Below are positions 3,003-38,455 of a stretch of 64,000 bases of DNA, piece by piece. The stretch comes from a virus (taxonomy: Duplodnaviria; Caudoviricetes): positions 14,613 to 78,612 of IMG/VR virus record IMGVR_UViG_3300032038_000052. One strand, written 5' to 3'. The notes under the pieces were generated by a model, which saw only the letters and a list, made by a program, of their open reading frames with translations, was not told where the DNA came from and ran no database searches. Positions within the stretch are counted from its first letter, which is position 1. Each line of letters opens with the position of its first letter. The translations under genes and the position numbers were made by a program.

Positions 3003-3101
3003 GAGCGGGTAGTATAAAGAAGTCATGAGCTTTATATTATGTACTATCCTATCCGGTGCATACCCGCTCTTATAATAAATAGGATAGGTGAAAGGATAGG
3101 A
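3003..3101 (+). promoter_or_regulatory. Structured leader: outer stem, inner hairpin, anti-SD and internal TATAAT
   Basis: GAGCGGGTA/TACCCGCTC stem; GTATAAAG/CTTTATAT hairpin; TCCTATCC (3047-3054) is complementary to GGATAGGA (3094-3101, RBS region); TATAAT at 3071-3076. Confidence 0.6.
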
Positions 3102-3107
3102 ATAAAT

Positions 3108-3734
3108 ATGAATAAAACAAAATAGATTGGATTAATAACTGAATTATCGTGCTAGTTATATCTTTCTTAGCTTGGGTACAATATTTGTACTCCATTATGC
3201 GAAGATTGTAGATATGACATGATTGCAGATTTTAATGGTATATTAAAAAAAATACAAGTTAAGACATGTCGTGAAAATAATAATAAGACTGGAATAGAAT
3301 TTTCAACCACTTCGACAAGAAGCAACTCTAGTGAAATTGTTAGGTAGAAATATTCAGAAAATGATGTTGATTATTTTGCGACATTCTATAATAATAAGTG
3401 CTACTTAATTAAGAATATCTATAGTAGCACATGTATTACATTACTATATGATGGGAATATCACTGGAAATGAGTGTATTCCAAAACATCTTTCTGATTAT
3501 GAATGTGAAAAACAGATTAAAAAAATATTAAATAATAATGAAGACACATTACCAAAAAGAGTAATATGCCAATATGATAAAAATTGGCAATTAATTGCAA
3601 CGTATAATTCCGTAAGGGGTGCTGCAAGAGCACTTGGAGACGAATTAAAAAATGCACATATTGCCGATGCAATTAATGGTAGACGCAAAATGGCATATGG
3701 ATTTTATTGGAAAGAAAATATAGATATATAGTAA
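3108..3734 (+). CDS. PD-(D/E)XK homing-type endonuclease (I-Ssp6803I/PDDEXK_5-like) with C-terminal NUMOD1-like DNA-binding domain; TAG=Gln; 208 aa
   Basis: Missing from the ORF track. With 5 TAG read as Gln: KQIGLITELSCQLYLSQLGYNICTPLCEDCRYDMIADFNGILKKIQVKT...DVDYFATF, then VICQYDKNWQLIATYNSVRGAARAL...INGRRKMAYGFYW; TAA stop. Confidence 0.8.
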
Positions 3735-3760: not shown

Positions 3761-4957
3761 GTGGCCGTAGTAAAACAAGAAAAAAAAGTCCCCATAGCAC
3801 AAGTTCGGGCAGAAAATGAAAAGATGAAAAAGTTACTCGAGGATGGAGTAAGATGCATTGTCTGTGGGGTAATGAAAGACAAAAGCAAATTTTATGTGAA
3901 TACGAACCCTCGTTGTAAATGTGAAGTTGGGTGTGTTTGTAAAGAATGTGCTAGGAAAGTGGCTTTACAAGTTGATGATGACGGAATCGAGCATGGCGTT
4001 ACTAAAGAGTCTTGCATAGAGGCACTTAAACTTTTAAATAAACCGTTTGTTAATTCCGTATGGGATTCAAGTGTATAGGAATCTGATAACCTTGTTGCTG
4101 GGAAAACAAAGTCAAATCCTTGGGTCGCCTATATTAAAAATATCGCAATGGTCCAATGGGTTGGCATGGACTTCTTCGATTCTGATATGTTCAAGAAAGG
4201 TGTTGTTGGTGGTGGACAATATGTTGTTAAAGAGCCTACTACTGCTGAGGATTTGTCTGAAGATGTAAGAACTACTTATGAAATTAATAAGAAGACTACT
4301 CTTCGTTTTCTTGGCTATGATCCATTTGAAAATGAACCGCTTGAAGAACAGCCAATCTTATATGCTAAATTGGTAAGTTACTTTGATGATTCTGTAAGGG
4401 ATGACGGCTTAAAGCTTGAAGCCGTTATAGAGATTGTTCAAAGTTTCAAAGATATAAAAACAATTAATGATGCTATCTCAAAATATAAGAAACAGCTTGG
4501 GGAAAATCCGGCTGTCATTGCGACAATTAAGTCTCTTGCTGATACTAAGCAAAAGATGATTAATTCTGCACTAGCTCTTGCAAAAGACAATGGAATATCA
4601 GTCAACCATAATAACAGTAAGAGTAAGGGGGCTGGAACTCTCAGTGGTATTATTAAAGAGATGTCTGAGATGAATCTTGATGACATAGAAATTAATACAT
4701 TTGATTATGAAACAAATGCTGCCATATCTCAGATTATGGAGGCAAATTTTAAAAATCAGATGGAACAGCTTAACCCAGACGAAAATGATTGGGAACGAGA
4801 GGTGCAGCATCAAGCAAAATTGCTACATAAATTATAGAAAGAAAGGGACGACGCTGTCGAATATTGTAGGCTACTCAAAAAAGAAAACAAAGACTTAAAG
4901 GATTTTCTTATTGAGAAAAAAATAATCGATGAAGCGTTAAATGTGATAGATGAGTGA
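3761..4957 (+). CDS. Zn-finger-containing packaging-region protein (putative terminase small subunit); TAG=Gln
   Basis: GTG start with GGAGGT RBS; CIVC...CKEC motif; ORF-track pieces 3761..4078 and 4148..4837 share a frame; TGA overlaps the TerL start. TerS assignment is from position only. Confidence 0.7.
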
Positions 4958-6869
4958 AGAAATTGTTTTGTTGGGTGATAAAATAAAAGAATTTAACCCT
5001 AAGAATTTCACGTATTTTGTGAAGCCTACTTACTATGATATGTCTAATCTTAGGCTTGAAGGATTAAAGAAGACTGCTCAGATAGTTTAGTGGGGACGCA
5101 GAAACCCAGTAAAGTTTTGTGAGCGGTTTATGGGAATTGAATTCCTTGATTATTAGAAATATGTTTTTATGGAGAGCTGGATAACTCCGTATGTCGTTTG
5201 GTGTATGAGTAGATCTAGCGGTAAAACAACACTCGGCAGTCCTTTCTTAATGGCAAAGACTCTTCTACTTCCATACTTTGAGGGTTATATACTTTCTGGT
5301 ACTGGCGCACAAAGTATTGGAATGATGAAAAAGATTGAGGCAATAACCAAGAAAGAGATTGCTAGTTTTACTGGACTTACCGATGTATTTATGAATGAAC
5401 TTGTAAAGAGTCAAGCGAATTCAAATGGTTTTTCTCATAACCCAAATTCGTGGAGTTATAAATTGTATTCTGGTTCAACTATAGCTACGGTCAATTCAAA
5501 CTTTGATGCTAGTCGTGGTAAACGCTCACGATTAAATTTCTATGATGAGGCATCTTATGTTCTTGAAGATATGTATACTGCTACCCTTCCATTCGTAACA
5601 TAGAATTCAGACTTCGCACTTGGTGGAAATATTGATGTATCATTATTGCCGCCAAACTTCCCAAACCAAGTTATTTTTGCATCGTCTGCCGGATCTGTAG
5701 ATGATTATTTTTACAGAATGTATAAAGAATATTCTTTGCATAGTATGGCTGGGGACAAGAGATATGCTTGTTTTGATATAGACTGTGATTTAGTTATGAA
5801 TGCTACATACAATGGAAAAGTATATCCTGTTCCGCTTCTTACGCAAGAGAAGATAGATTCTGAAATGAAGATTAATCCTCTTAAGGCAAATAGGGAGTAT
5901 AGGAACAAATTTGATATCGATGGCGGCGACTAGATTATCGTTAAGAAATCACAGATTTTGAGGAATAGCGTTGTCAGAGCACCAGAACTTGTAAATGCAG
6001 ATGGTGACAGCTTATATGTTTTAGCATGGGACTTAGCTGCTAAAAAAGATAATAGTATCTTAAGTGTTGGCAAACTACTCCATTCTGATAAACGTGGTTG
6101 GTATATGGAAATTGTTAACTGTATTAATCTTCTTGACAAAGAGACTAGGAAACCACTAACTACTCCAGAACAGGTTAAGCGTGTATAGGAAGAGTTAATA
6201 AATTACAACGGCGTTGGAGTACCAGATTATGCGAATATCAAATATCTAATGATGGATGCTGGATCTGGTGGTGGTGCTACTTAGGTATTAGCTTATTTGT
6301 TTGATGATTTTTATGAAGAGCATCATAAAGGGGAAGAAGATTTTCATCACAAAGGATTGATGGATGAAACATATGAATTCTGCCAACCTTACATTAAGAG
6401 ATATCCAGATAATATAGATTTAATAAGAATGATTGAACCAACAAAGTATAAAGTACAAATGTATACTGAATTGATAGAATTGATTGAGCAGGATTTAATA
6501 TCATTTACTGCTGATTATGATTATCATGGTAATCTTACATTTCTCACAGAAGAAGATGGCGAGGAAAAGGAAGAGGTATACAAACTTAGTCTTGAGGAAG
6601 AGTAGGCATTAAAACAGATTGATGCTATGAAAGAGGAAGTGACTCATATGTATAGATATAAATCGTCGAACGGTAATATACGTTATGATCTTGCTCCTGG
6701 TTTTTCAAATATAATTGGTGATGATAGAAGCTATACGCTTTGTCTTTTGGCTCATTGTTTAGCGATGATGAGATAGGAAGATTAGATTCGTCAAAGAAAA
6801 AAACCTAATAGTGATGATTTGGTTAATCGCTTATCAATCCGTCCAGCAAGACGATTTAGTTCATTTTAA
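4950..6869 (+). CDS. terL: Terminase large subunit; TAG=Gln; 639 aa
   Basis: Walker A-like SRSSGKTT, Walker B-like NFYDEA, nuclease motifs LAWDLA, DAGSGGG and GDDRSY; 9 in-frame TAG (5088, 5154, 5601, 5931, 6186, 6282, 6603, 6774, 6783); TAA stop. Confidence 0.93.
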
Positions 6870-17590: not shown

Positions 17591-17866
17591 ATGGATAGAG
17601 ACAATATAGTTCATTCCGATGTAACAGGAAAAGACTACTATCCATCTTAGGTTGTTCGATTGGTGAATATTCGATAGATATGTAGTTATATGCGTCTTGG
17701 AAAAATCCCAGTAGATATTTATCCATCTATTGATTTTAAGTCGAACAATCCTGTATTGGTAGTTTTGTTTGATAGGAATGATACAAAAGAGGCATATAAC
17801 CGATGGTGTGAAAGCACAAACTTGTGGGAGGAACTGTAGAATGAAGCCAATGATTTACATGGATAA
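17591..17866 (+). CDS. Hypothetical protein (DUF5659-like); TAG=Gln
   Basis: MDRDNIVHSDVTGKDYYPSQVVRLVNIRQ...VVLFDRNDTKEAYNRWC; 3 TAG; TAA stop. Confidence 0.65.
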
Positions 17867-18977
17867 TGCGGCAACGACAAAACCATTCGCAGATGTTGTG
17901 GAGGCAATGATTCCATATTACAAAGATAGCTTCTATAATCCTTCTGCCAACTATGATATGGCTTATGATGTAAATGATGTATTGCAAGATTGCCGTAAAA
18001 CAATAGCTAATACTATTGGATGTGAAGCAAATGAAATATATTTTACATCTGGTGGAACTGAATCCGACAATTGGGCATTGCGTTATGCACAGCCTGGTCA
18101 ACATATTATAACGTCAAAGATAGAGCATCATGCGGTTCTTAATACTTGTAAATACCTTGAGTCAATTGGGGTAGATGTTAGTTATATAAATGTTGATGAG
18201 CATGGAATGATAATACTAGAGGAGTTGGAAAAAAGTATTAAGACAAATACTTCTCTTATATCTATCATGACTGCCAATAATGAAATTGGTACTATTCAGC
18301 CCATATTGGATATAGCCAAAATCGCTTTTGATTATGGTATTGCATTTCATACTGATGCAGTACAAGCCTATGGACATAAGGAATTGGATGTTAATGAATT
18401 AGGGATTGATATGTTGAGCGCAAGTGCTCATAAATTTAATGGACCAAAAGGTGTTGGATTTTTGTATGTAAATAAGTGTATTAAATTACAACCGTTTATT
18501 TTAGGTGGTATGCAACAAGGCGGCATGAGGGCTGGTACTGAAAATGTTCCTGGTATAGTTGGTATGGCTAAAGCAGCTGATCTGTCGTGCGATTTAGATA
18601 ATATATATCATAGGGCAATTGTTGCTGGTCTTAGGGATTATATGCTAAGTAAAATTAAAGCTGAAATTCCTAATATTATTGTAAATGGAGATTTACATAA
18701 TAGATTACAAAATAATCTGAATATATCATTTATTGGAATTCGTGGCGAACAGTTATTAAGCCAATTAGCAATGAATGGCATCTACGCATCAACTGGTTCT
18801 GCTTGCAATGCATTTTCTCCAGAGCCATCACATGTGTTAAAGGCAATCGGGCTATCTGATGAAGATGCAAGTTCTAGTATTAGGTTCACGTTGTCTAAAG
18901 AAAATACTATAGATGAGATTAATTATACTGTTGATGTATTGAAGAGAAGTGTTGAAGATTTAAGGAGAATTGGATGA
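17841..18977 (+). CDS. iscS: Cysteine desulfurase (IscS/NifS, PLP-dependent); 378 aa
   Basis: IYMDNAATT, FTSGGTESDN, EHHAV, HTDAVQ, SAHKFNGPKGVG (PLP Lys), GTENV, STGSAC (catalytic Cys); GGGAGG RBS; no TAG. Confidence 0.95.
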   Translation: MKPMIYMDNAATTKPFADVVEAMIPYYKDSFYNPSANYDMAYDVNDVLQDCRKTIANTIGCEANEIYFTSGGTESDNWALRYAQPGQHIITSKIEHHAVLNTCKYLESIGVDVSYINVDEHGMIILEELEKSIKTNTSLISIMTANNEIGTIQPILDIAKIAFDYGIAFHTDAVQAYGHKELDVNELGIDMLSASAHKFNGPKGVGFLYVNKCIKLQPFILGGMQQGGMRAGTENVPGIVGMAKAADLSCDLDNIYHRAIVAGLRDYMLSKIKAEIPNIIVNGDLHNRLQNNLNISFIGIRGEQLLSQLAMNGIYASTGSACNAFSPEPSHVLKAIGLSDEDASSSIRFTLSKENTIDEINYTVDVLKRSVEDLRRIG

Positions 18978-19231: not shown

Positions 19232-19246
19232 TTAAATTGTTATGTA

Positions 19247-19270
19247 GGCCCTCATTTTATGAGGGCTTTT
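19247..19270 (+). terminator. Hairpin/terminator immediately upstream of the tRNA
   Basis: GGCCCTCAT / ATGAGGGCT followed by TTT. Confidence 0.55.
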
Positions 19271-19275
19271 ATTAT

Positions 19276-19346
19276 TGGGGTGTGGTGTAATGGAAGCACA
19301 GGAGGCCCTAACCCTCTTGATCTCAGTTCGACCCTGAGCGCCCCCG
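19276..19346 (+). tRNA. Amber suppressor tRNA (anticodon CUA), probably charged with Gln
   Basis: Cloverleaf: acceptor TGGGGTG/CGCCCCC with discriminator G73; D arm GTGT-AATGGAA-GCAC; anticodon stem GGAGG/CCTCT with loop CC-CTA-AC (CTA at 19308-19310); T arm CTCAG-TTCGACC-CTGAG; no encoded CCA. Confidence 0.92.
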
Positions 19347-19350
19347 TTCT

Positions 19351-19455
19351 ATGCGAGAAAACATAAGGAGTAATTACCCTTGTGCGAGAGTAATCCCTAA
19401 CTCTCATTTCTCGCATTTATTACAATTAGGGGTGGATTACTACAGGGAGGTAATG
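19351..19455 (+). promoter_or_regulatory. Structured leader: outer stem, inner hairpin, anti-SD and internal TACAAT
   Basis: ATGCGAGAAA/TTTCTCGCAT stem; GAGAG/CTCTC hairpin whose loop TAATCCCTAA complements TTAGGG..GATTA downstream; ATTACC(CT) complements the GGGAGGTAAT RBS; TACAAT at 19421-19426. Confidence 0.6.
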
Positions 19456-19457
19456 CT

Positions 19458-20345
19458 GTGGGGAATAGATATATTTTTAAATAGTCTTTTGAAGATTGGT
19501 GTATTACAAATAATAGAGAAGACATTCTACAATTATGGGATTACGACAAAAATGATGTTTTGCCGTCTGAAGTACCATTTGGAACCAAGAAAAAATATTA
19601 TTTTTGTTGTCCAGCTGGTATACATGAGAGCGTATAGAAAAAAATATATGCTGTGACTGAAAAAACAACAAGAAAAATGGTCTGTAAGTATTGTAACGGC
19701 GGGGTTTATTGGAATAACACTAAAGAAGATTTTTCGGGTAGACAAATAGGAGAACTACATGTTATTGGGCTAGATGAAGAGAAAACCAAAAATGGACAAT
19801 ATTATTGGGCGTGCGAGTGTTCTTGTGGGAATATTGTTTCTGTCAGTTCTTCAAAATTAAAAAGTGGAAAGAAGACTACGTGTGGTGGGCAATATAGACA
19901 TAAAGCGCCATAGTGGATAGAGCCAGATGGCGGGTTAGATTCATATAATTCACAATATCTAAGAGAGCTTCGTACTAGTCCGTTGTATTATGAATATAGA
20001 CGAGCAGTTCAAGAAAAGGACAATTGGAGTTGTATTGTTTGTGGTTCACATAAAGATATTGAGGTACATCATATTTATCCGTTTGCAGCGTATCCGCATG
20101 AAAGATTTAATCCTAATACTGGAATATGTATGTGCAAAATACATCATAGTATTAGTAGCCCTATTAGTTTCCACAGTATATATGGAAGATTTGGTAATAC
20201 GCCAGAGTAGCTTGAGCAATATGTAAATTTTATGCGAAAAGAACTAGGTATTTTAGAATATTTTGATGTTTATAAATACATGGATAATTATGAGTCTGAT
20301 AATATAGATATTGATGACTCAATGTTAATAGATTTATATGAATAA
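19458..20345 (+). CDS. HNH homing-type endonuclease with N-terminal zinc-ribbon (DUF4379-like) and CECSCG module; TAG=Gln; 295 aa
   Basis: GTG start after GGGAGG; LWDYDKN..EVPFGTKKKYYFCC; WACECSCGN; CIVCGSHKDIEVHHIYPF..E.FNPNTGICMCKIHH; 4 TAG; TAA stop. Confidence 0.85.
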
Positions 20346-20365
20346 ATCTAAGGAGGTAAAAGGAT

Positions 20366-22375: not shown

Positions 22376-25300
22376 GTGGCGTTTAGAAGTGACTATTAGG
22401 TTGATATTGACCTTAATTTGAGGAGCAAACAGGCATTCGATTAGCTTGAAAAACAATATAACAACATTAAGGCAGAAATAGAGGGGGACCTCATTAAAAC
22501 TAGGATTACTGCTGATACGAAAGACCTTGAAAAGGTGCTAAAAGATATAGCCGATATAAAACCAGATGACTTATCTAATGTATTCTTTAATATTCAAGGG
22601 GGAACACTTTCAAAGTAGTTAAAATAGTTAGAAACATTTGTCGGAAAATCTGGTGAAGAAATTGGATTATAGTTTAGAGAAAGCATACAGGATGGGATGA
22701 AAGGTTCTTTTTTAGACCTCTCCCAAATGGTTCAAAAATATGTTGGAGATGGTAAAAAAGTAACAAAAGGCAATGTGTCAAAGTTATTATAGGGATTAAT
22801 GCAAGATGTATAGTCTCCACTTGATGATACAAATTATTTAAATATAGTAGAAAGAGCAGAAAAACTAGAGCAGCTATATCACACTATGCAAGATTTGCAA
22901 AAAAATAAACTAGATATATATAAAGGATTAGATACAAATAAGTAGCAGATTGGTGATTTTATTTCTTAGCAATATCAATAGATTGGGGAGTTGTTAAGCA
23001 AACAAGTTAATGTTGACGCATTTAGGTCTCAAATATTAGATGTTTTTTCGACTCTGCAAAGTGACTTACAGAAGATGTTTACTGCTATTGCAGAACGAAG
23101 GAAACTCGGATTTGGGAATGGGAGCGGTACTGGCAATGGTGATGGGAATGGATCTGGCAGTGGCGCATATAATAAAGAGACTGAAGAAGAAATAAAAAGG
23201 ATAACAGATGAAATTACTAATCTTACATCTCAAATTGATGAAGCTAAAAATAAGTTAGAGGAATTGAAAAAGGGTACAAAAATATCGGAGGATCTTGATA
23301 GTAAAACAAAAGCTAGTTTAATTTCATCTATTAAAACAGATATCGCTGAAATGGTTTCTGAGCTTGATAAATTTGGAGATAATATTCCATTAGAGAAAGC
23401 TCAAAAGTTTGTGGATTTAATCACTACTTATTATGAGCTTGGCGGTCAAGAATCTAAAATCGCATCGACAGAAAAACTTAAAAATGAAATAGATGAAAAA
23501 TGTAATTACATTTATGAAAAGTTTGATCCGAATGCGGAAGGTGATTTTGAAGGGAAAGTACTATCATCTTATGTTGATTTGAAAGCAATTTAGGAGCAAT
23601 CTGCAGCAATAGAATCATTAACGCAAAAACTTTAGGAATTAGAATAGCAAAAAAAAAGGCTGGTCGAAGGGGTTACTAGTTCTAGTGAGACTGGCGAGGC
23701 TACTGTTACGGCTAAACCAGATGGATCAAAGTTTATTGAAGATTTATAGGAATAGATTAATGGTTAGTCTGTTACAGTAGATACTAAGCCTAGCGAAGAC
23801 TTCTTGGACAAAGTCAAGGATCTCGTCTCCGATGGTATAACAGTTGATGTAACTCCATCTAATAAAAAAGCGGAAAATACTGAATATACAAAACCAAATA
23901 TAGAGATTCCAGATGATATGTCTAAAAAAGTTCGTATTTTTGATGGTGTGAAAGAGCATATATATGATGTACAAAAAGATGCTGATGCACTTTATAAAAA
24001 GCTAGATGAGCTTGCTGGAAAAATGCAATTACCTGTATTCCATTCTGGTAATTTGGAGCAATCGGTATTATCTAGTCCAGATTATATGCCAGCAGATTCT
24101 TTAAGATTTGTTAAAGAACGTGGATTACTTGGATCTCTTGGTACTGGTACATACTGGGCTTCGAATTTACTTGACATTATTGAAGCATTTTAGAATCGTT
24201 CTTAGGACGTATAGAAATTTTTGTATGTTACTGATTTATCTAAGTATAGTCCAGAATTATTAAATCTTAATAGTGATGATGCGATGGATGATTATACATC
24301 CATGTTAACGAAAATTACTGCATTTGTTTTTAATTCTGTACAGGAGACAGAAAAATATACAAAGCTATTACATGGGACGAATAGTTCTGATTAGTTGTTT
24401 GAGGAATACAAAGATTTCTTCTCAAAATTTGGCGTGTCATTTGAAGATTTTTCAAAGTTTATTGACTCAGAGATTAAGCGAGTTTCATCGTTTGCATCAG
24501 TTGAAGATATGGGGAAAAGCACGAGTGTATCTACTGAACTTCAAAAACAATTATTAAAAATTAATGGTGTAGATATTACTCGTGGTAACACTAATGATTC
24601 ATATGCTTTGGGAAATATACTATTTGATATTGACAAGACACATCCATTTGATATTTCATTTGGAGAGAATGTTAATGTCGCAGAATATTTTTATAAAGCT
24701 GTTCTTATGAAAATACTTTCAAACAAGGCGATGAATCCAGAAAATATAATAGAAGAATTGGCAAACAACTATGCAGAAGGTATATAGGGTATCAATACAC
24801 AAGATATTATAAACAACTTGATGGATGTTTAGAATAAAGCGCATCCAATTTCTTTTGATGACATAAACTAGCACTTGTTTGGTCGAACACGAGGGAATAC
24901 TTCCGAGACGCCAGGTGGACAACCTAGCGAAGTATCAGAAATAAAACTGCATGTAGATTAGTAGAGCCTCAATTAGGTTAAGTCGGATATCTAGGCTAGT
25001 TTAGATGAAGCATCATTTAATATAGATATATAGGTAAATAAAGAAGATATTAGGTCTGATGTCCAAAGTGGTTTAGATGAATAGCCTTTTCATATAGTAG
25101 TAGATAGACAAGAAAAATCTGAGTCAAAGACACAAATTCAAGATACATCAACAAACGTTTATAGCGAATAGGTTAAAAAAAGTATCGAAGAAACACAAAG
25201 GTATTTAGAAAGATTAAAAGCAGACGTATCAAGGATGGATCCGGATGGAATTGTATCAAAATACCTTTTTGGAGAGAACGGTGTAAAATCTAGTTAGCAA

Positions 25301-28300
25301 TTAGTTAATGAAATATAGAATGAAGTTAAAGCTATTGAAGACTCGCTATATCAAGACTATTTAAATGGTCGTAAAGATATTAATTATGAAAATGAATTCG
25401 CAGCCCCATTTAATAAACTAAGATTAAGTTAGGATTTTGGGCTAATAAAATATACAGATAAGCTTTTGCCAGATCATATCTAGGATATTTATAATAATTT
25501 GTTTAAGAAAGCACCATCTATAACGTCATCATTAGATGATGACTAGATGTCTTTTTGGGGCGGTCTAATTGATGCACAAGAAAGATTAAATGTTCTGCAA
25601 CAAAACGGCGGGAAAGATTATGAAGCACATCTTGAAAAAATAAAGCAATTATCAGATGAAGTCAAAGTTATAAAAGAGAGAAATGCTTCTTTACAAAAAA
25701 CAGATGTAGATACATCAACATTATCACAGGAAGAAGCAACAAAACGTGCAGAAGGATTTCTTAAAGAAAAAGAAGCTATTGACAAGCTTATTGAGTCTGT
25801 GACTTAGTATCGCTTAGAAAGCAAATAGTTTGCAGATACTGATAGTTATTTCGGAAATTATTTACCAGATATTTCTGACCTTAAAACAATGTCTGAGACG
25901 CTAGAAGATGAAGCAGATTTATTAAAAACGTTAGATATATATCGCAATAGAAAGCAAGCAAAAATTTTTGATAGTGCAGTTGATTACAAGTTTAAAGGAA
26001 AGCATGGAGCACCATAGGAGTTAGAAAATTATTGGGAAGAATTAAGTGATTCTTTTTATCCAAAGTAGGGTTTGGCTTAGTATTCTGGCGAAGAGGCAAT
26101 AGAAAGATTAAATCAAAAAGCAAAAGAACTTGGTGTTACATTTGATGAGACATCTAAAAAATGGGTACAACTTACATCTGCTGGTTCCAATGGGCCTTTA
26201 ACATCGCAAAAAACTTCGACACAAATACCTGCTAATGGAGTATTATTTGGCGATTTATCTGCAAAACTTTCAGAAGAACAGCGTGCAACAGAGCAGTCCG
26301 TTTTGGGAGAAGAAAGTGTTTTTGATAAACTAATTTCAAAGTTAACAACGGATGTTCCAAATGCTGTTGATACAAAAACACAGGCATTCAGATCTGAATA
26401 GGTAGAAGTTGATGACCTTATAGATTTAGAAATAAATAAAATCAAAGAGTTAGCAGAGACTTTGCAGACCGCTTTTGCGACCTCTGGCAATGTATAGGAT
26501 TTTGGTGCTTTAAGAGATTTAATTCAAGCGATCAATGATTTCTCTAGTGGTGAAAACATATCTACTAATCTTGAAACGCTTTCCGCTGCTGTTTAGGGTT
26601 TAGTAGATGCGTTAAAAGGTGCATCAGATATTTCTAATGCTTCTACTCAATTATCTGATTTAATGAAGTCGATGAAAGTTTCAAAGGCGAATGTTGATAA
26701 CATGATTGACTTGGCTACTGCTATTGAGATGCTAGTTGAACAGTTTAGGAATCTAGGAAAATCTGCGGCAATGCCTAATATTTTGTAGCCAATTAATGAC
26801 ATCATAAAAAATGCGGAAGCATTAAAAGATTTATCTAAAGTACTCTCTGTTTCTGCAAAAGAAAGAAGAACTGCATCTGTTCAAGCTAGTATTAATCCAG
26901 ATGTGAATGAGAAGAAAGCGAACGATGCTGCGGAAAAGCAGTTGGACAATTTGATGCAATACTATGCTTTACAAGATGAAAAGAATCAAAGAAAAGTCAG
27001 TGGTAAAAATGAGCGTGCATCTCTTACTGCAATTGCAAAAGAAGAAAAGCTTTTGAGGGAAATTAATGAATATGAAGCTGAAATTGCAAAGAAAAAACAA
27101 AATGGTATTTCATTAACAGAAAAAGAAGTCGCAGCGTTAGAAAAACGTAAAGAACTAGAAAAAATAGTAGCCGATAGACGTGAAGAATATGAAAAAGCAC
27201 AGGCGGATGCGGCGGAAAAGAGTTTAAAAAATCGAACTGACAAAATAAGAAATTCATATGATGATATATAGAAAGAGCTTGATAACAACTTATCAATAAA
27301 CTAGGAATTCTTTACACCAGAGTTAGATCAAAAGGTCGCTGAAATAAAGCGGAAATTTTAGGAGTTACGTGATATATAGCTAGTAGACCAAGAAGATATA
27401 AATAAAGCAGAAAAACTGAGAACCGAAATTAATAAGGCAATTGCTGAATTAAAGAATGACCCAAACTATAAGACTGCGAATACAAATACTAGAACTGCCT
27501 TATAGGCGAAAGCTGGGAAATGGTTGGAGAAGAATACTGCTGCTCCAGAATCACTTAGGAATTAGGTAGGTGAGTTATATAGTACACTTTCTAGCGATGT
27601 CCCAGTTTCTATGTTAAAAGAAATCTCAGCCGAATTAAACAGAATTGATGCGGAAGCTGCGAAGGCCGGCAAAACAGGTAGAAGTTTTGTTGATATGCTT
27701 GGCGTTAGTTTTAAGAACCTTGGCAGATATCTTTTAAGTTTTGCAAGCTTCTATAGAGTAATTGGTATTTTCAGACAGGCTGTTGGGATAGTAAAAGAAC
27801 TTGATACTGCCCTCATGGAGGTAAGAAAAGTTAGCAGTGAATCATTGTCGTCATTAAAAGAATGGCAGCAATTAACGTTTAGCCAAGCGAATGACATTGG
27901 TGGTACTGCTCAACAAATCTAGGAATCCACTGCTGCATGGTTAAGACTTGGTAAATCATTTGAGGAAGCATCAGAAGCCGCACAGGCATCTGTTAAGTTA
28001 CTGAACGTTTCCGAGTTTACAAATATTGATGATGCTACTACTTCTCTTGTATCTATGCGACAGGCATTTAAAGATTTATCGTATGAAGATTTTATTGATA
28101 AATTAAATGGTGTTGGTGATAATTTCAGTTCGAGTACTGATCAGCTTGCGTATGGTATGAGGAACGTATCTTCTGTTCTTAAGGTTGCTGGCAATGATAT
28201 TGACCAATCTCTTGCTTTGCTAACTGCTGCAAATGATATTACTCAGGACATGAGCAAGGCTAGTATGGGTGTGCGTACAGTAGCACTTCGTATCGCCGGA

Positions 28301-31300
28301 ACCGAAGATGCGAAAGCTGAACTTGAAGAACTCGGAGAAGATACTTCTGACTTTATTGTACAAACGCAATCTAAAGTAGATGCGAAAGTAAGAAAATATA
28401 CTGCTACCGCTGATAATCCAAATGGTATAAGCGTATTGGATGACAATGGCCGTCTAAGAAGTACTTATGATATCTTATTGGATATTTCAAAGGTTTACGA
28501 TTAGATTGTCGAAAAAGATAATCAGTTCGGTACAAACACTAGTAATGCATTACTTGAATTACTTGCTGGTAAGACAAGAAGTAATATTCTTGCTTCTATA
28601 TTATAGAATCCAACTGTACTTGAAGAAGCTTATACACAATCATAGAATTCAAAGGGCATTGGTCAAAAAGAGCTTGATATCTATCTTGATTCTATTCAAG
28701 CTAAGATGACCAAGTTACAAAATGCTTTACAAAAACTTGCGTCTGTTACTATTAACAGTGATTGGCTTAAAGTGTTTGTAGACCTCGGCGCTGGCGCAGT
28801 TAAGATATTCTCTACATTAACGGAGAAGCTTGGAAGTTTCAGTACAGTTATAGCTCCTATAATAAGCATGTTCCTTCAGCGCAAAGGTTTTGGAATGCTA
28901 GGGTCTAAGAACGGAGCTGGAATTATCTCTATGCTGTTGGGCAATGTAAGTGATTCTGCCATCAAAAAGGAACTTAGCCCATTATAGAAATAGATGCAAA
29001 ATGTCTTTTCTGGCATGAAATTTAACGATGATGATAATTTCTTTACAACAATGGCTAAACGTGGATTGACTCCAGAGACCATGAAGACATCTGAGTTATT
29101 TGGACCAATGCTTAAGGATATGGATGGTGCTGAAGCCGCTTCTCTTAGTATGGGAACTGCTGTTGCGACATTGAACGAACGGCTTGGTATGACTGGGGAG
29201 GTTGCAGTTTAGACTGGTGGCACGCTATCTAGTCTTGCGGGTGGTTTAGCTACTGTAGGAAAATCGTTTTTGTCTGTAGGATTAACAACCATAGCTATCA
29301 CAGTGGCTACAAAAGTTATAGAAGGGCTTGTAAAAGCCGTTTACAACTGGGTTACTGCTGACGAGCGTGCTATTGAAGCTGGGAAAAAAGCTCGTGAAGA
29401 AGCAGAACAATTAGCGAAGTCATATGCAGACACAGAAAAAAAGACCAATGAGCTTGGGAAAAGATATAATGAATTAAGGCAAGGAGTTTTTTATGATGAG
29501 CGAAAGGGATATTCAAACAAATCTCTTTCTGAAGATGAATTTGAGGAATTCTTAAAAGTTAATGAAGATATAGTGGCATTATATCCTAGACTTAAAGAAG
29601 GTACTGACGCTCAAGGTAATGCTTATGTAAATCTTGGGGATAATGCTACACAGGCCACAGAAAAATTAAAGGAATATCTTAGGATTTAGGAACAAATATC
29701 CAATGAAGGTATAGGTAAGACATTTGATGACCAATTGGCTGGAGCTGTTGCAAAAGAAGCAGAATTACGTGGTATAATACAAAATGCTAACTTAGATAGC
29801 ACTACGTTAGATATATTAGATAATGGAATTGATGATTATATATAGCGTATAGATGATAATTATAACTATTATACCCTCAAATTAGAAGAACTTGGAACGG
29901 TAAATCAAAATACAGTTGATTCAATACAACAAGTACTGAATGAAAATGATTCTCTGTTATAGTTTGATACTTCCGCAGAAGGTTTTAAGTAGATAGTTAC
30001 ATTTACTTTCGAAATGGATGAAGATTCAGAAGCTAAAATAAGAGAGCAATTGTCATAGGCTATAAATGGTGGGGCTGATTATTCTACTACTGATACTGTT
30101 GCAGGACTTAGAGAGTAGGTAGAAAGTTATGAAGAAGAAATTGTAGATGCTTATGATTCTACTAGACCAGCTCTTTTGGCTAAGATAAAAGAGACTAAGA
30201 CATATAAAGATTTGCCATAGGAACTGCAAGAAGGTATTAGTAATATATATGATAATATAGATATATATCAATCATATAAGAATTATGAGAACTACAAAAA
30301 ACAGCATTCTGAATATTCAAAAGACTTCTATGCGTATATTAAAGAATAGTATCTATATGCAATAAATAAGGCGATTAACCAATCTGATGATTCTATGCAA
30401 CGAAAAGAAAAGGCGGACTTGGTCGGAAAATTATTCTCTTTTGACGCATCAGATCTAAACTCAGCGCAAGCTATTAATCAAATAGACACTATTCTCTCTT
30501 CTATATTCGGCGAAAATACAGAAGTAAAGTAGTCTATTAAAGTTGCACTTGGTATAGACTTTGTAGATCCAGAAACTGGAGAGGTAATAAGTGATAAATA
30601 TAAAAAGCAGAACCAGGAATTATATGATATCCTCAAAGATTATGGTTTATCTAGAGGGGATGTCGGTAAAGGGCTTACAATTGGTGAAAAGGATACAATA
30701 CAATCTGCTATATCATCTGGTGAATTTAATTTCATTGGTAGTGGGCTTGATAAGTTAAAGGAATGGCTTAAAAAAGAATATTAGCCATCACTTGATGGTA
30801 GCTTGTCAGATATATTCAACGATGCGTCATACAAGGAGAACACGGAAGAAATTTCTTCCAATATCTCTACTATCTCCTCTTCTCTTGAAACACTTAGGAA
30901 TAATGGTAAACTCACAGCAGAAGAGATGATGAAACTTCAAGAGTCGTTCCCAGATATGACTGAGTTTTCTGAAGAAGCCTTATCTTCAAGAGGTGTTGAG
31001 CTGCTTTCAAAATGGATTGAAGAGCTTAGAAAAGATTATGATACGTTTTCAGATGAAGGTAAAGAACAAGTAGATACATATATCAATAATCTTATGACTT
31101 CTTTCAGTGATGCCATTGCGACTGAAGAAGATGCGGTAAAAGTCCTTTATGATTCATTTATTAATCCTACCGACACAGAACGGGAAGAACAATTACATAT
31201 GAACCGTGCCGAGTCTGTTATTAAGGGATTAAAAGAAAAATATGGTGATGAGCTTGACTGGAATATTGTATGGCAATTAGCTGTTAATGATTAGCTGTCT

Positions 31301-34300
31301 GGAGAAATGGAAGACATCTATGCTCAATATGATGAACGTGTTCTTAACTGGGACATTAATGTTAATATTCCTAAAGAGGTTGAACAGTTAGAAAGGAACA
31401 TCGCAGGACGAAATGCTAGAATATCAGCTATTGAAGCCGAAAAAGGTTATTACGATGCTACTGGAGAATACTTGCCGGACATAAGTGAAAATTGGTTTGA
31501 TGAGATGCTCCGTTTAAGTGGGCAAAATGTTGCAGATAAAACAGTTGAGTATACAAATGCGCAAAAAACATATGCAGCCTATACAAATGGATTGTTTGGA
31601 AAAATGCTTAGTAATGCTTCTCCAGAGTTATCTTCTGGAGCGTATAAGGCTATGGCAGAAGCAAGAGCTGCTATGGTTTAGGCAATGACGGAGTAGACGG
31701 ATATTCAAAAATAGTATTATGAATTCTAGGCGAATATGTATACCAAAGAAATTGAAGAAGCACAAACAAATGCAGCAAAAGTATAGGCTAGAATTGATTA
31801 GGCGAAATTTGAAGGTGTAATGCCAGCCGAAACCGATTATGCCGAATTACGTGATGCATACAAGACGTAGGCAGAAATGCAAGAAGGATTGGCAAATTTC
31901 TGGGATACAGTTGCTAATAGTGGTAAAGTAAATTCAGTTATGCGTGCAATTGCAAATCAGAATGCAGCAACTGCTCGTGCAAATGCAATTAGTGCTAATG
32001 AATCTGCCAATGAGGCTGACCGTGGTTATTTAACTGATGAACTTCTAGAGAAACAGAATACTTATAATGATCTTCAAACTGAAGCATCTCAAATTGAGCA
32101 ACAGATTACTGATGATGAAACCAAACATCGTAAGATATCCAACAAGCGTTATGATGAGTTAATTAAGAATGGCGACAAACAAATCGCTAATCTTGAAGAC
32201 TAGCGCAAGACGTTAGTTGACCTTCGTAGCAAGACGATTCAAGGCACAGAAAAATGGCGTGAATATTAGTCGCAAATTGATGATGTTGACTCTTCTATCT
32301 CATCCATGGAGAACAGCCAGGTTGGTTGGTTTGAGTCAATGACTACTGCCGTCTCGTCCAATGCATAGACTCTCGCTTCTGCTCTTGATTCAGCTTTCTC
32401 AGAGATTAATTCTGAAACTGGATTAACTCGTGACACGATGAATACGCTTGTCGAGCAGTTCAGCGACCTTGAGAATTATGATGTATCTAAGATTTTCTAC
32501 TCTACTGCTGATGGTATGAAATTTAATACCGATGCAACTAGAGAATTGATAGATGCTGAGTATGATTTATAGGTTAATAATCTTCGTGATGCTATTGCTG
32601 AAGAAACTTCAATAATCGAGGCAAACAAGGATTCAAAGGACGCTAACTCATATGCTACTATTCAGAATGCATAGGCTAATATAAATGCTTATAATGCAGA
32701 ACTTGCATCACTCTAGGCATTATATGATCAATAGCAAGAATCTCTTTCTAGATACTCTGCTTGGGAGACTGCAAAGTCTACTGCCAATGCTGGTGATAAA
32801 TACACAAATCTCCAAGGTAGTTGGAAAGATATCAAAGAGATGTTCCAAAACGGTTTGACAGGCACTGATGATTTCAAATCTTTCGTTGCGTATTTTGACG
32901 AATGGGGAATGGGAACTGTCGATGCCTACAAACGCAATAAAGATATGATTGCTCGTTATCTTACTGAAGATGGCAAGGGCATGAAGAATTTTTATGATGA
33001 CCTTGTATCCAAAGGTTTTGGAACAAGAACTGGTAATATCTATTCAATTGGAATTGAGGATACCGAAGCTGCCGCTCATGCAATGGGAATGTCAGAAGAA
33101 GCATTGAAGATGTTCCTTGACCGTGGCGAGGATTATGGTTTCAGAAATACATGGGTTGAAACAGTTCTTGACGGAGAATTAAAATTATAGGATACTACTG
33201 AACAATTAATCGAAGAACAAGAACGTCTGCAGCATATGAGAGCAAACGGTGCTACAGAAGACGAAATTAAGAATCAAGAAACGCTAGTTAGCCAGCTCAA
33301 AGATAATATGAAAAATTATATTGAGAATACGGCTGATGTAGCTGGAGAAGATAATACAAAAACATATGCAAAAACAATTGAACAGCTTAAAGCTATAAAT
33401 GAACTTCGTGGCGAGACATTTGGCGCAAAAGTCAAAATGACTGATAGAGAATTGTCTGCGTACAATCAGCAACTTGATAATGCTATGCAACAGACTCTTG
33501 GGGGCTATACTTCAGATCAGCTGCAAGAGTTTAAGATTCAATATGAAGCTGAACTAGATGATGACTCAAAGAGAATTATTGACTAGATGACCGAATTAGC
33601 CAAGCAGCGTGAGATTATACAGAAGTACACAGCAGAAGTTGAGATAAAGGATGAATCTGGACAGCCTATTACTCCAGAAGAATTCTTATCTTTAACAGAA
33701 GAACAGTAGAAAGAGACTCTAGAAGCAACATATGGTGTTACTATAGATGAGACGAATTTTGATTTGTGGAAAGAACATTTCCAATCTCAGACGTTAACTG
33801 CGAAAGTTCAAACTGTAGTAGACTCTGGTACTACATCGTATAAAGACCTTCTTAATATGGATGCCGAAGAGTTGACTCAGACTATTGGATTTAACGTTGA
33901 TGAAAGTAATATTGATGAAGTTAAAGCAAAAATTGAAGAAATGTCTGCTGTTAAGGTATCTCTTGATGAGACATCTCTTACTTCTTTGACTAGTGCATTG
34001 AGCGAAGCTTTTGTCTTGGCTATTAACACTATTTAGGCTGGAGAATAGGTTGATGAGTTTGTTGAAGAAACAGATGATAAGACTGGTACTGTACAAGTAG
34101 ATGCGGATACGAAAGAAGGAGAGAATGCTGTAACTAGATTTGTCAATAGCATTATGGCAAAACATCCAGCGATGCGTGTGCTTGCAGATCCTACTGTGCT
34201 AATTGATAGTATTCAAGAAGTACTTAACAATCGTGAATTCAATGTCAATGTTAAAGCAAACGTGAATGCTCCAGCTGCTGTTGTTAAACCAGGTGTAGCT

Positions 34301-37300
34301 AAGAAAGTTGGCAATGTCGCTGTTAACGGCAGAAACAATGGTCACGCTTATGCTAATGGTAAGCCAGGAGATCTTGTTGGTGAGCTTGGGCGAGAAATGG
34401 TCGTCGATCCGCATACTGGCAGATATTACACGGTTGGCGACAATGGACCTGAGTTTACAAACATCCCAGATGATGCAATTGTATTTAACGCCGACTAGAC
34501 AGATGACTTATTAAAACATGGTCACACTTCTACTCGTGGTCGTGCTCTTGTAACAGGTAACGCTTTTGATAGTACAGATTCTACCAATGAATTTGTCTAT
34601 AATGATCCAAAGAATACATTTGGAAATGGTGCAAAAGCAACTAAAGATAATACTAAAGCTACGAAAGATAACACCAAAGCGTCCAAAGAACAAAAGACTG
34701 CTCTTGATAAGTTCAATGATTGGCTCGGTAAATGGGTTGACTGGATTGATAATCGTATTGATTCTCTAACAAAACGTATTGAACGATTTGAAAAGAAAGC
34801 AGATGAATTAATCGGTTATTCCAAAAAGAACTAGACAATCCAAAATGCGATGAATACTCTTTCTACTATTCCGTAGTATCAAAATGCGCAGTTGAAAACC
34901 AAGAAAGTTAAAGGCACCAATGGTGTTGTAACAGAAATTGCAACTGGAACAAGTGGTGTTAAGAAGGGAACTCTTCTTGGCGATACCATGCGTGGTGCTG
35001 TTAGATATCAGCAACAGGCCGACAAAGTGATGAAGAAGGCCGTTAAGAGCGGGCTTCTTTCTCAAAAGAAAGCTAACGAAATCGCTAAACTCATCTAGAC
35101 TGGTGAGATTGATATTCGTAAGTACAATGAGAAAGTTCGTGCGGTAATTTAGGCATACGAGGACTGGTTTGGCAAGTCACAAGATTTGATTGATTCTACT
35201 TATGAACTCAAGCAACAGTTCAAAGATCTCGAACAAACGAAGCTTGATAATATTACTGAGAGATTTGAAACATTAGTAGGATTATTTGAAGCGGCAAATA
35301 CTTTATCTGAAGCGGCTGTAGATTATTATTCTGAGCGAGGTCGTGCTGTTAACACTGTAGATAAAACAGAGATGGGCTTCCAGCTTGAACGGCAAGGTCG
35401 TATAACTCAAGAGCTAGAAAACGAGAGAACTGCATATGAAACTGAGATGAAGCAAGCCAAGGCTATTTTTGGCGAAAGCTCCAATGAATATCGTTAGGCA
35501 CGAACATAGTTCTATCAAATACAAGAAGAGTTAAAGAAATCTTAGACATCAGAGCTTAGTTTAAGACACACAATTGAAGAACTCACATTTACTGTACGTG
35601 GATTTGTGATTGACAGGATTCAATCTTTTGTAAGCAAACTTGGCAACATTGCTTCTTTGGCTGAAAAGCGTGGCACAAATAAAGCATTGGGTTATGAAGT
35701 AACCGAAGATGTATTTAATGAATAGATAGGGTATAATAACGATTTGATCCTTAAATATGCTGAAGATTTACAAGCTCGTAAAGACGAAATCGCTCGTCGT
35801 ACTATTGAAGAAGGACTTGAAATCAATTCTGATGCATATTAGGAGCTTTATAACAAGATTGTTGCGGATGAAGATGCAATGTATAAGCTTTATTCTGCAA
35901 ATGAAGATCTCAAGATGTCTATTCGTAATCTTAGATGGAAACCGTTCAAGGAATTTTAGGAAACTCTTGATAAGATTGAAAGCGACTTTAATCACATCTA
36001 GAGCTTTATTCGTGAAGGTGAATTGCTTGATGATGACGGACAGTTTACTGCTCGTGGATTTGCTCAGATAGCTCTTGTTGGCGAGAATATGGATGTCGCA
36101 GAAAAGAAGATCGCAAACGCTCGTGCTGCTATTGAGAAGCTGAACGATGAACTTGAAGTTGGCACAATTAATGAAGAGACTTTCGGCGAAGAGTTCGAGG
36201 CTCAGATGAAGATTATCCAAGATTCTGCTTCTAGTGCGTATGACAGCATGCAGAAGCTTGCTGATTTGTACATCAAGCAGATTACCGAGGAGAATTCGAT
36301 TCTTCAGGATTTGATTAAGAAGAGACAAGACGCATTAAATAAAAAGAAAGCGTACTATGATTATGACAAACAGATTCGTTAGAAAAATAAAGATGTAAAT
36401 GCACTTAGGGCTTAGATAAATGCCTTGACTGGAGTATCGACCGATGCGGCCAAGGCCCGTCGTGCACAACTCCAGGCACAGCTTAAAGAATCTGAACAGG
36501 ATTTAGAAGATACTCGTTATGAACACCAGATTGAAATGCAACAGCAAGGCTATGAGCAACTCTCCGAGGATATGCAGAAAGCCTTGGATGATGCAGTCAA
36601 GCTGATTAACGGCGATCAACAAGCCCTGAAAGATACTGCCGCAACGATGCTCTCTCAGCTTGAAACAAATTATATTGACGAGAAAGCTGTTATAAGCGGC
36701 ATTGTAGCGGGGACTGGTACTAAAATTCATACTGCAACCGAGGACATGATTGACCAGACCTTGACTGCGCAATCCGTATTGTCAGATGACGCACAGGGGA
36801 TTGCAAGTGCTGTTTCTGCAATTGCTAAAATTCTTGGACAGAATCCTCAAAAGATGGCGGAATCTTTGGGCGGTATTCTTACTCAGCTCGGCAGTACTGG
36901 AACGCTTTATCAGGCGATTGCTAAGTTTGCTGATGAGAATGGCATTAAGATTAATGAACTTGGATTGGATGGAGTAATATCCGCTATTGCTGCCCCGTAT
37001 GATGGACAGGGCCAAGCCGCTAAATTATTCGCGGAAATCAATTCTGCGATTACTGGAGATAATACAAGAAATTCTGTATTCTCACAGACGGCAGCTATCA
37101 AATCTGTTATTGATACCATTGCCGAGAAACTCGGTTTAGACAAAGAGGCCGCTTACAACGAGGCTCAGGAAATTGCTAAACAACTTGGAGGAGACGCAAC
37201 AATCTCCGATGTTGTAGACCAGTTCCTTGACAACCGCGGCATTGAAGTCGATTCTGAGTTGCAGGATTTCATTGATAACATAACAAATCCATTTGACGAC

Positions 37301-38455
37301 GTGTCAGCGAATGATTTGTTTGAAGGTTATAATGACTTGATATCTTAGTATAACAATTAGCTTCAACTCCTTGATGACCTCGGTGTTAAGGATAATCCAG
37401 ATGGAAGTTCTCCCGCCACGATGGAGCCAGCCGAAGCTATTGATATGCAACCTGTTGTTGAGGCTATTGAAAAAATAGACCCAGTTGTTAATATTACTAC
37501 CAATTCCGATGGCGAAGATATCAGCGATGTACTTGAACAGATTGAAGACGATTATTTGAAGTTGGATTCAGATAAAGGTACAACTGGCGGGACAACAAAA
37601 GATGATAATGTAGCGGGTCCTGAAAATATTGACAAGGCGCAAAAAGAAAAAGAAGCAATGGAACGCGCCGAGGAAATGGACAAATTAGCAAAACAAATCG
37701 TAACCGCTTAGAATAGTTTAACCAAATTAGAGAAGAATCTTGATTATTATGCCACTCAATATTATAACTATAACAGTAAGATAGCCGACAAAAAAAAAAG
37801 GCTGGCAGAGGCCAAGGCAAATAAAGAAGGCAGCGCAAAGTACGCTAAAATTAAAGAAAAAATTAAATCACTAAAAAAGAAAAGAGATGAAGCAGCAGAA
37901 AACAAAAAGGCTTTTGAATACCAAATCAAGAATGCAAAAGATGATTTGCAAGTACTTGAGGATAGGCTTGCTTTGATGCACCTTGAGGATGAATTTGATT
38001 CTTACGCTTCTGGCACAAAACGTGTCGGAAAAGATATGAATGCGTGGACGAATGAGGATTGGGAGAATCTCGGAGCCGAGATGATTGTTCGTAAATCAGA
38101 CGGTGCTATTCTCACACCTCTGAAAGCGAATGATTCTGTAATTCCAGCAAACCTTGCAGATAATCTGTTTAAGTGGGGAGCAATCAGTCCAGACAAATTC
38201 CTGTCGAATCCATTCTTGGGCAAGATGGGTGATATGCCGAGCAATGCGAACGTTACTAACTAGGTTGATCAGAAGGTTGAGATGCATTTCGACTCGTTGT
38301 TCACAATTCAAGGCGATGTTAATGCTGATGTTATGGATAGACTTGAAGAGTTTGGTAAGGCTCTTACGAGTGACCGTAACTTCTAGTAGAATGTTGTCAA
38401 ATTTGTAACCAAAGATTTTGTGCGTGAATCCAAGAAACAAGGTGGATTCCGTTAA
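22376..38455 (+). CDS. Giant tape measure protein; TAG=Gln; ~5,359 aa
   Basis: More than 20 ORF-track fragments share one frame; the gaps I translated contain TAG but no TAA/TGA. TP901-type TMP core at ~27780-28700 (VKELDTALMEVRKVS...IDKLNGVGDNFSSSTDQL); GELGREMVV and C-terminal YASGTKRV motifs; TAA stop. Confidence 0.9.

Follow-up and report, generated by a model that had tools for sequence, protein, structure and literature searches.

A phage amber suppressor tRNA(CUA) with cytidine at position 33, in a genome that appears to read TAG as glutamine

The DNA analysed here is a stretch of 64,000 nucleotides, referred to as the window, which comprises bases 14613-78612 of a 78.6-kb IMG/VR viral record. 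Coordinates are window positions unless another sequence is named. An amber suppressor tRNA gene with a CUA anticodon, a Gln-type acceptor and no encoded CCA occupies 19276..19346 on the plus strand, as found with ARAGORN, Rfam RF00005 and a family model, R1. The initial annotation had read a tRNA at this locus from the letters, and ARAGORN indeed calls one with anticodon cta, the only tRNA it reports in the window. The call spans 19275-19347; the one extra base at each end is a quirk, host tRNA-Gln genes being treated likewise. RF00005, the sole Rfam match in the window, spans 19276-19346 over the full model with 43.3 bits (E 7e-6; gathering score 29), and covariance model R1, representing 35 related tRNA(CUA) genes, gives the window tRNA 77.1 bits.

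The gene folds as a class I cloverleaf with a 7-bp acceptor stem, a 4-bp D stem and 5-bp anticodon and T stems. The acceptor stem, read directly from the sequence, is UGGGGUG / CGCCCCC, where the mismatched U1·C72 is followed by G2:C71, G3:C70, G4:C69, G5:C68, U6·G67 and G7:C66. G73 at 19346 is followed by TTC, so CCA is not encoded. The D arm is GGUGUAAUGG-AGCAC, the variable loop is UGAU (4 nt), and U8, A14, G18G19, T54-Psi55-C56 (TTCGA) and G53:C61 are canonical. The anticodon loop at 19306..19312 on the plus strand, likewise read from the sequence, is C32 C33 C34 U35 A36 A37 C38, with the anticodon CUA at 19308-19310. Position 33, at 19307, is C in place of the U33 that makes the U-turn in a canonical class I tRNA. 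Thus, every feature listed in the initial annotation is present, namely CUA, C33, U1·C72, G2:C71, G3:C70, G73, the 4-nt variable loop and the lack of CCA.

ARAGORN labels the gene ‘Pyl’ because of the CUA anticodon alone. A tRNA-Pyl, for which TAG means pyrrolysine, has a 3-nt variable loop, a small D loop without G18G19, no T-Psi-C and one base between the acceptor and D stems. This identity is ruled out by G18G19, TTCGA, U8-G9, the 4-nt variable loop and the alignment of TAG with Gln described below.

The flanks were compared with L186, a 13.9-kb contig from a different phage, likewise TAG-recoded; over 10.9 kb, it shares 90.9% identity with the window, with 964 mismatches. Upstream of the tRNA, a terminator-like site at 19246..19268 on the plus strand consists of a GC-rich hairpin and a T-run, and its 3′ end lies 7 nt short of the tRNA. 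It could either terminate the gene at 17697-18977 or form a hairpin in the 5′ leader of the precursor tRNA. It is retained in L186 with one loop change. Downstream, a 22-nt tRNA trailer at 19347..19368 (plus strand) is identical in L186, and a similar trailer follows an unrelated tRNA(CUA) of G001, the closest long relative (90% terminase identity, with TAG = Gln by the same codon test as used below).

An HNH endonuclease cassette, recognized by PHROG and Pfam HNH matches, lies beside the tRNA at 19369..20352 on the plus strand. It has a structured leader at 19351-19455, whose start is inside the trailer, and an ORF at 19458-20345 with 4 TAG codons. In L186, the tRNA and the 22-nt trailer are followed directly by the next gene without the cassette. 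A homologous leader and HNH gene, ~71% identical, follow the unrelated long-arm tRNA(CUA) of G001 (G001:91527-92808). The cassette is an insertion and not part of tRNA function. Incidentally, an HNH homologue also adjoins a U33 tRNA(CUA) of another contig (L189:738-2150), and the HNH leader has a three-way junction fold (z = -2.7) with compensatory changes relative to G001. Elsewhere in the window, a tRNA-shaped element at 2941-2996 has acceptor, D and T arms with no anticodon arm, scoring 31.9 bits with Rfam and 30.2 bits with the family model. It is at the site of a G001 tRNA cluster (CUA, Pro, Asn) and adjoins a nuclease-like ORF at 3039-3734.

The comparison with L186 also bears on whether C33 is real. 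The tRNA is 100% identical in L186, and together with its trailer it lies within a 111-nt perfect run, although identity falls to 76-84% in the upstream gene. In the local comparison, 4 of 1,788 71-nt windows are perfect. Over the whole window-L186 alignment, the figure rises to 16%, since the two phages are almost the same in other segments, and it is only the local comparison that supports constraint on the tRNA. Because the ~9%-diverged L186 carries the identical tRNA, C33 was inherited, and a sequencing error or a private mutation is ruled out. Conservation in a single relative reflects inheritance of C33 and does not prove selection for it.

The record is 46% complete by CheckV, and all of its genes are on the plus strand. 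Translation with table 11 shatters the late region, whereas TAG read-through yields long closed genes; three that are open only in this way have 5,359, 3,024 and 1,506 codons with 107, 10 and 18 TAGs, respectively. Across the record, there are ~235 in-frame TAGs in ~23,000 codons, compared with 665 CAA/CAG codons. All gene ends are TAA or TGA, and the early genes, upstream of 2893, are essentially without TAG. Thus, a tRNA with the CUA anticodon and phage genes rich in in-frame TAG, which together mark a code-15 suppressor, are found in the same genome.

PHROG and Pfam matches name an exonuclease, a large terminase, a portal, tail proteins, an HNH endonuclease and a tape-measure domain. Among the suppressor clients are the large terminase (4950..6869, plus strand; phrog_2), which has 9 in-frame TAGs and was used for the codon test, and the heaviest client, a giant gene of the tape-measure type (22376..38455, plus strand) whose 5,359 codons include 107 in-frame TAGs. 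The latter matches PF10145 PhageMin_Tail with 70.7 bits at residues 1837-2044, and the homologous giant ORFs have 64 TAGs in G001 and 36 in G002, another recoded relative. The nearest cultured relatives of the portal, at ~25% identity, are large Firmicute siphoviruses and not crAss-like phages. The phage is a large, siphovirus-like, TAG-to-Gln recoded phage with relatives linked to Lachnospiraceae in rumen and gut samples.

The meaning of TAG was examined by codon comparison. Among the hundreds of full-length relatives of the terminase, 63 IMG/VR loci were taken, and the codons under the 9 TAGs of the window terminase were read. TAG codons 47, 69, 218 and 445 face CAG/CAA in nearly all of the ~60 standard-code relatives, codon 413 does so in most of them, and the variable TAG positions are CAG or CAA in the closest relatives. 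In-frame terminase TAGs occur in only 4 of the 63 loci, which are the closest ones (84-91% identity). The other ~59 are standard-code, with 33-73% identity, most of them at ~71%.

A wider comparison took in all ORFs of the record's first 40 kb, with TAG masked as X. The residue profile of the resulting 33 TAG columns is Q.31, E.12 and K.10. The phage's own glutamine codons give Q/E/K profiles of.35/.12/.07 for CAG and.31/.15/.08 for CAA, and these match the TAG columns. On the other hand, the TAG profile is unlike those of the AAG, GAG, TAT, TAC, TGG, TCG, TTG, TCA and TTA controls (K, E, Y, W, S, L). G001 and G002 show the same behaviour. Taken together, the terminase codons and these profiles show TAG = Gln to the extent that sequence comparison allows.

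Relatives of the tRNA were sought by its anticodon arm, GGAGG-CNCUAAC-CCUCU. The arm matches 96 IMG/VR contigs, of which 93 contain tRNAs, all with U33. The 3 other matches, with A or G at position 33, were rejected as chance matches in non-tRNA sequence. When the UGAU variable loop was included, metagenome contigs gave 23 matches, 22 with U33 and one, L186, with C33. Thus, U33 is present in 115/115 of the genuine tRNAs sharing the anticodon arm (93 viral and 22 metagenome), and L186 alone shares C33 with the window. A BLAST search of the window tRNA against the whole records of 38 relatives, including standard-code relatives, G001 and G002, found no copy, and a locus search from a single neighbouring protein found no related loci.

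When 35 distinct members of the family were aligned, 96.7% of cells proved to be paired, both sides change in 16 of 21 pairs, and no shuffle or slid register comes near the score of the real cloverleaf. The exception to the fit is pair 1:72, which is unpaired in 18 of the 35 members. Among 56 distinct tRNA(CUA) genes of the D-arm class, this pair is U:A in 18, U·U in 14, A·C in 9 and U·G in 8, and the rarer states are C:G (4), U·C (2) and G:C (1). A weak or open 1:72 is therefore the rule of the family rather than an oddity of the window tRNA. U1·C72 had been taken for a non-canonical feature; the mismatch itself is there, but it is not odd, since it is the norm for this phage tRNA(CUA) family. 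Weakness at 1:72 would fit a synthetase that has to open this pair, as E. coli GlnRS must.

The host side of charging was approached through the terminase alignment, which includes relatives in two MAGs of Lachnospiraceae, the likely host family, one of them within a 378-kb contig. These relatives are 67-71% identical, and the host assignment rests on these two, not on the window phage. Both MAGs have glnS (TIGR00440, 717 and 686 bits; NCBIfam equivalog cut-off 426). In the one MAG examined for them, tRNA-Gln(UUG) and (CUG) start with UGGGCUA and end with UAGCCCA-G, giving U1:A72, G2:C71, G3:C70, G4:C69 and G73, and CCA is not encoded. The phage acceptor copies these host tRNA-Gln features, but its 1:72 is open. 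A host tRNA with the body of the phage tRNA was sought in the two MAGs and none was found; a CCA-tail pattern search likewise gave no match.

E. coli GlnRS recognizes a weak or open 1:72, G2:C71, G3:C70, G73, G10, U35, A37, G36 and U38, an identity set for E. coli-type tRNA-Gln that reportedly comes from Jahn 1991 and Hayase 1992. The phage tRNA has the weak or open 1:72, G2:C71, G3:C70, G73, G10, U35 and A37, and has A36 and C38 instead of G36 and U38. A36 is unavoidable for an amber suppressor, as in supE, and C38 is also present in most family relatives. We infer possible GlnRS recognition from the acceptor end and U35 only, the tRNA body being unlike host tRNA-Gln.

Domain searches of the whole 78.6-kb record, and of G001 and G002 (65% and 98% complete, respectively), found neither GlnRS/GluRS (PF00749) nor RF-1 (PF00472). 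With glnS in the host, a matching acceptor set and no phage GlnRS or RF domain, charging by host GlnRS would therefore be the economical assumption. The initial annotation had called the gene an amber suppressor and had proposed that host GlnRS, or else a phage enzyme encoded outside the window, charges it with Gln, suggesting a search for GlnRS and release factor in the rest of the genome. The first proposal agrees with a CUA tRNA in a phage with ~235 in-frame TAGs that appear to encode Gln. The second, in its host GlnRS form, is likewise strengthened by the TAG = Gln result, the MAG glnS, the matching acceptor and the search of the record, which turned up neither domain.

The occurrence of C33 was examined more widely by scanning IMG/VR for the D arm while leaving the anticodon stem free. 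Among the tRNA(CUA) genes found, U33 is present in at least 113 contigs, A33 in one lineage, and C33 in two more independent genes, L233 (U1·U72, A73) and L234 (in a 234.9-kb record; C1:G72, A73, CCA). The A33 lineage in IMG/VR (L307:699-769 and L310) has the loop C-A-C-U-A-A-A. Six other contigs (L304, L306, L308, L309, L312 and L313) share an unusual tRNA-like gene; it has this D arm, and ARAGORN fails to fold it.

Position 33 was then tabulated in tRNAs not selected on this position. Among 131 distinct tRNAs from the terminase-relative loci, G001 and G002, it is U in 120, C in 8 and G in 3. In standard-code relatives, C33 occurs in 11 of 24 orthologous tRNA-Ser(UGA) loci and in 5 of 25 orthologous tRNA-Tyr(GUA) loci, the C33/U33 relatives being in loci L105-L161 (for example, L106:6366-6551). 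Thr(UGU), Glu(UUC) and Pro(GGG) tRNAs provide single cases of C33, and Lys(UUU) and Trp(CCA) tRNAs cases of G33. In the other viral and metagenome loci fetched, 283 distinct non-CUA tRNAs have U (270), C (7), A (4) or G (2), and all 39 tRNAs called in the fetched stretches of the Lachnospiraceae MAG have U33. C33 is a recurrent minority state of phage tRNAs that, judging from these genes, affects several isotypes in the family. Because sense-codon tRNAs of standard-code relatives carry it, C33 is not a suppressor mark.

In the literature searched, we came across no report of C33 in phage tRNAs. U33 is regarded as near-invariant in elongators, with eukaryotic initiators (C33) and Candida tRNA-Ser(CAG) (G33) named as exceptions (PMC5041475, PMC11122139). 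In the Candida tRNA, G33 reduces leucylation and decoding (PMC1991585). A U33C change in yeast tRNA-Gln(CUG) has a phenotype that was taken as poorer decoding or charging (PMC3664417). Phage tRNAs have been proposed to bear anticodon-loop changes that evade host tRNases, in a paper that does not mention position 33 (PMC10264068).

We consider it probable that the window tRNA is a working TAG-to-Gln suppressor charged by host GlnRS, in which C33 is derived, inherited, compatible with efficient decoding and not specific to suppression. The gene would be transcribed and processed, and CCA would be supplied by the host CCA-adding enzyme, as for host tRNA genes, which likewise lack an encoded CCA. 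Host glutaminyl-tRNA synthetase would then charge the tRNA with glutamine, reading U35 and an acceptor end that copies host tRNA-Gln (U1, G2:C71, G3:C70, G73), with 1:72 already open. The charged tRNA would read the ~235 in-frame UAGs, which lie in late and structural genes, the early genes being essentially TAG-free. C33 itself would be a derived substitution of U33 and part of the wider U33/C33 polymorphism in tRNAs of the phage family.

The TAG load was used to judge how well such a tRNA has to decode. TAG makes up 26% of Gln codons here, a share inflated because the record is mostly the late, TAG-rich half, compared with 17-18% in G001, which has a U33 tRNA(CUA), and in G002, which has no canonical one. 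For the 107 TAGs of the tape-measure gene, the computed full-length yield is 0.4% at 95% per-codon read-through, 34% at 99% and 58% at 99.5%, so that this essential gene needs about 99% read-through per TAG. With this load and with C33 in sense-codon tRNAs, C33 is not suppressor-specific and is unlikely to be a strong throttle. These sequence-based estimates argue against a strong loss of decoding by C33, and a mild effect is possible. A second, canonical suppressor could be present in the missing half of the record; phAss-1 phages have three suppressor tRNAs (PMC10607447).

Four other explanations of C33 were weighed against a functional suppressor with a tolerated substitution. C33 could be an escape change or anti-determinant against a host enzyme whose recognition involves the 5′ part of the anticodon loop, such as a defence or toxin anticodon nuclease, a non-cognate synthetase or a modification enzyme, with decoding kept. 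This is rather unlikely, though the same pressure would account for C33 in Ser, Tyr and other tRNAs of the family. C33 does occur in several phage isotypes (8/131 in the family and 7/283 among non-CUA tRNAs elsewhere) and in none of the 39 MAG tRNAs, and at least three tRNA(CUA) lineages, those of the window tRNA, L233 and L234, acquired it separately, as their stems differ. Loop changes evading host tRNases have also been proposed for phage tRNAs (PMC10264068), and G33 of Candida tRNA-Ser(CAG) is a leucine anti-determinant in another code change (PMC1991585). However, no nuclease or target was identified here, the proposal on host tRNases is silent on position 33, and the difference between 11/131 non-U33 tRNAs and 0/39 is not statistically strong. 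In addition, U33 and C33 versions of one tRNA coexist in close relatives, which near-neutral drift would fit as well. C33 might instead weaken the U-turn as a built-in throttle of suppression, limiting read-through of host stops or timing late genes. The defect phenotype of yeast tRNA-Gln U33C (PMC3664417), the ‘medium’ decoding in Candida with G33 versus ‘high’ with U33 (PMC1991585) and the rarity of C33 among related suppressors are in its favour, and yet we find it unlikely. The 107 TAGs in one 5,359-codon gene would leave so little full-length product at 95% read-through, the C33 genome has the highest TAG density of the three recoded relatives, and a throttle has no obvious use in the sense-codon tRNAs that also carry C33. 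For the same reasons (the 26% TAG share, the 107 TAGs in one gene and C33 in sense-codon tRNAs), the suggestion of the initial annotation that C33 may tune suppression efficiency is not supported in that form.

It is very improbable that the C33 tRNA is a decaying or non-decoding copy, with the operative suppressor or another mechanism encoded in the unsequenced half. The record is 46% complete, the Rfam score of 43.3 bits is modest compared with 55-72 bits for tRNAs of the listed relatives, G001 uses another tRNA(CUA), and G002, which is recoded and 98% complete, lacks a canonical tRNA(CUA), so other routes may exist. On the other hand, the tRNA is perfectly conserved amid a divergent neighbourhood, its four stems are intact, all invariant positions but 33 are canonical, and its acceptor end matches host tRNA-Gln. 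Least credible, and very nearly dismissed, is a fourth base pair between C33 and a G following UAG, by which UAG-G would be read preferentially. G follows TAG in 36% of cases compared with 24% after CAG, AAG and GAG (p = 2e-4), and G001 and G002 show no such G excess. However, the excess comes mainly from the tape-measure gene, without which it is 32% versus 25% (p = 0.11), and a direct test against G001 falls short of significance (p = 0.45). Ayer and Yarus (1986) are also said to have concluded that the context effect needs no fourth pair, which goes against this explanation. Incidentally, A after TAG is less frequent than after CAG, AAG and GAG in the window phage. Quadruplet reading was ruled out, as the frame is kept across all TAGs.

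Phages of ‘code 15’, in which TAG is reassigned to Gln, include crAss-like, Lak, Agate, Sapphire and phAss-1 groups (bioRxiv 10.1101/2021.08.26.457843; PMC9523058; PMC10607447). The window tRNA is a member of the code-15 phage suppressor tRNAs, which are already known. Like those phages, the window phage has a standard-code host, keeps its early genes free of TAG, uses TAG heavily in structural genes and at conserved Gln positions in the terminase, and has a phage tRNA(CUA) without a phage GlnRS. The anticodon arm matches those of the code-15 phage tRNAs base for base (93 viral and 22 metagenome) except at position 33, which is C here and U there. Its acceptor, UGGGG...CCCC-C/G73, is of the Firmicute tRNA-Gln type, unlike the UGCCC...A73 type that is common in ~100-kb crAss-size contigs. 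Unlike the code-15 groups, its family consists of 150-217-kb phages, the others of which are mostly standard-code, with recoding in a small subclade.

Even within the recoded subclade the suppressor is not constant, as G001 and G002 differ from the window phage. The suppressor of G001 is an 88-nt tRNA(CUA) with a long variable arm and U33, located upstream of the terminase on the minus strand (C1:92721-92808). Other tRNA(CUA) genes in IMG/VR (L240, L242, L246, L252, L261, L266 and L274) form a class that combines the Gln-type D arm with variable arms of 20-21 nt. A long-arm tRNA serving Gln reassignment would be unusual. G002, at 98% completeness, has 288 in-frame TAGs, yet ARAGORN calls no canonical tRNA(CUA) in it. 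What the family model matches there is a tRNA-like gene whose anticodon arm contains an insert of 50-55 nt (C1:127213-127331; L178:7813-7931, minus strand).

E. coli supE is a CUA tRNA derived from the tRNA-Gln genes glnV/glnX, and GlnRS charges it and other CUA suppressors with Gln. The window tRNA resembles supE in having CUA with U35, a weak or open 1:72, G2:C71, G3:C70, G73 and G10. Unlike supE, which is a mutant host tRNA-Gln, it is a natural gene of the phage; it also differs in its D arm, in having C33 and C38, and in a true mismatch at 1:72. Candida tRNA-Ser(CAG) is likewise a codon-reassigning elongator without U33, in which G33 lowers mischarging and decoding (PMC5041475, PMC1991585). 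However, it has G and not C at position 33, it is a eukaryotic case of sense-codon reassignment, and non-U33 is present here also in tRNAs of the phage family that reassign nothing. Eukaryotic cytoplasmic initiator tRNA-Met provides a natural C33 in a working tRNA (PMC5041475, PMC11122139). It binds the P site directly, whereas the window tRNA has no initiator marks and would enter the A site as an elongator.

The core finding is a well-documented new member of a known group, and an unusually clean computational case for TAG = Gln with the host-GlnRS route. Less expected are a natural elongator without U33 that apparently bears a very heavy decoding load, and orthologous Ser and Tyr tRNAs that switch between U33 and C33 within the phage family. 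One could imagine, as an outside chance, that C33 is selected in phage tRNAs since it keeps A-site decoding efficient enough for the 107 UAGs of one gene while hiding the loop from a host nuclease or other enzyme that reads U33. If so, selection would account for the recurrence of C33 in suppressor, Ser, Tyr and other phage tRNAs together with its occurrence in 0/39 MAG tRNAs, and U33 would be far less essential in elongator tRNAs than usually assumed. If C33 tRNAs decode well, this would bear on how strict the requirement for the U-turn uridine is, on how suppressor tRNAs are engineered and on the proposed loop changes by which phage tRNAs may escape host tRNases.
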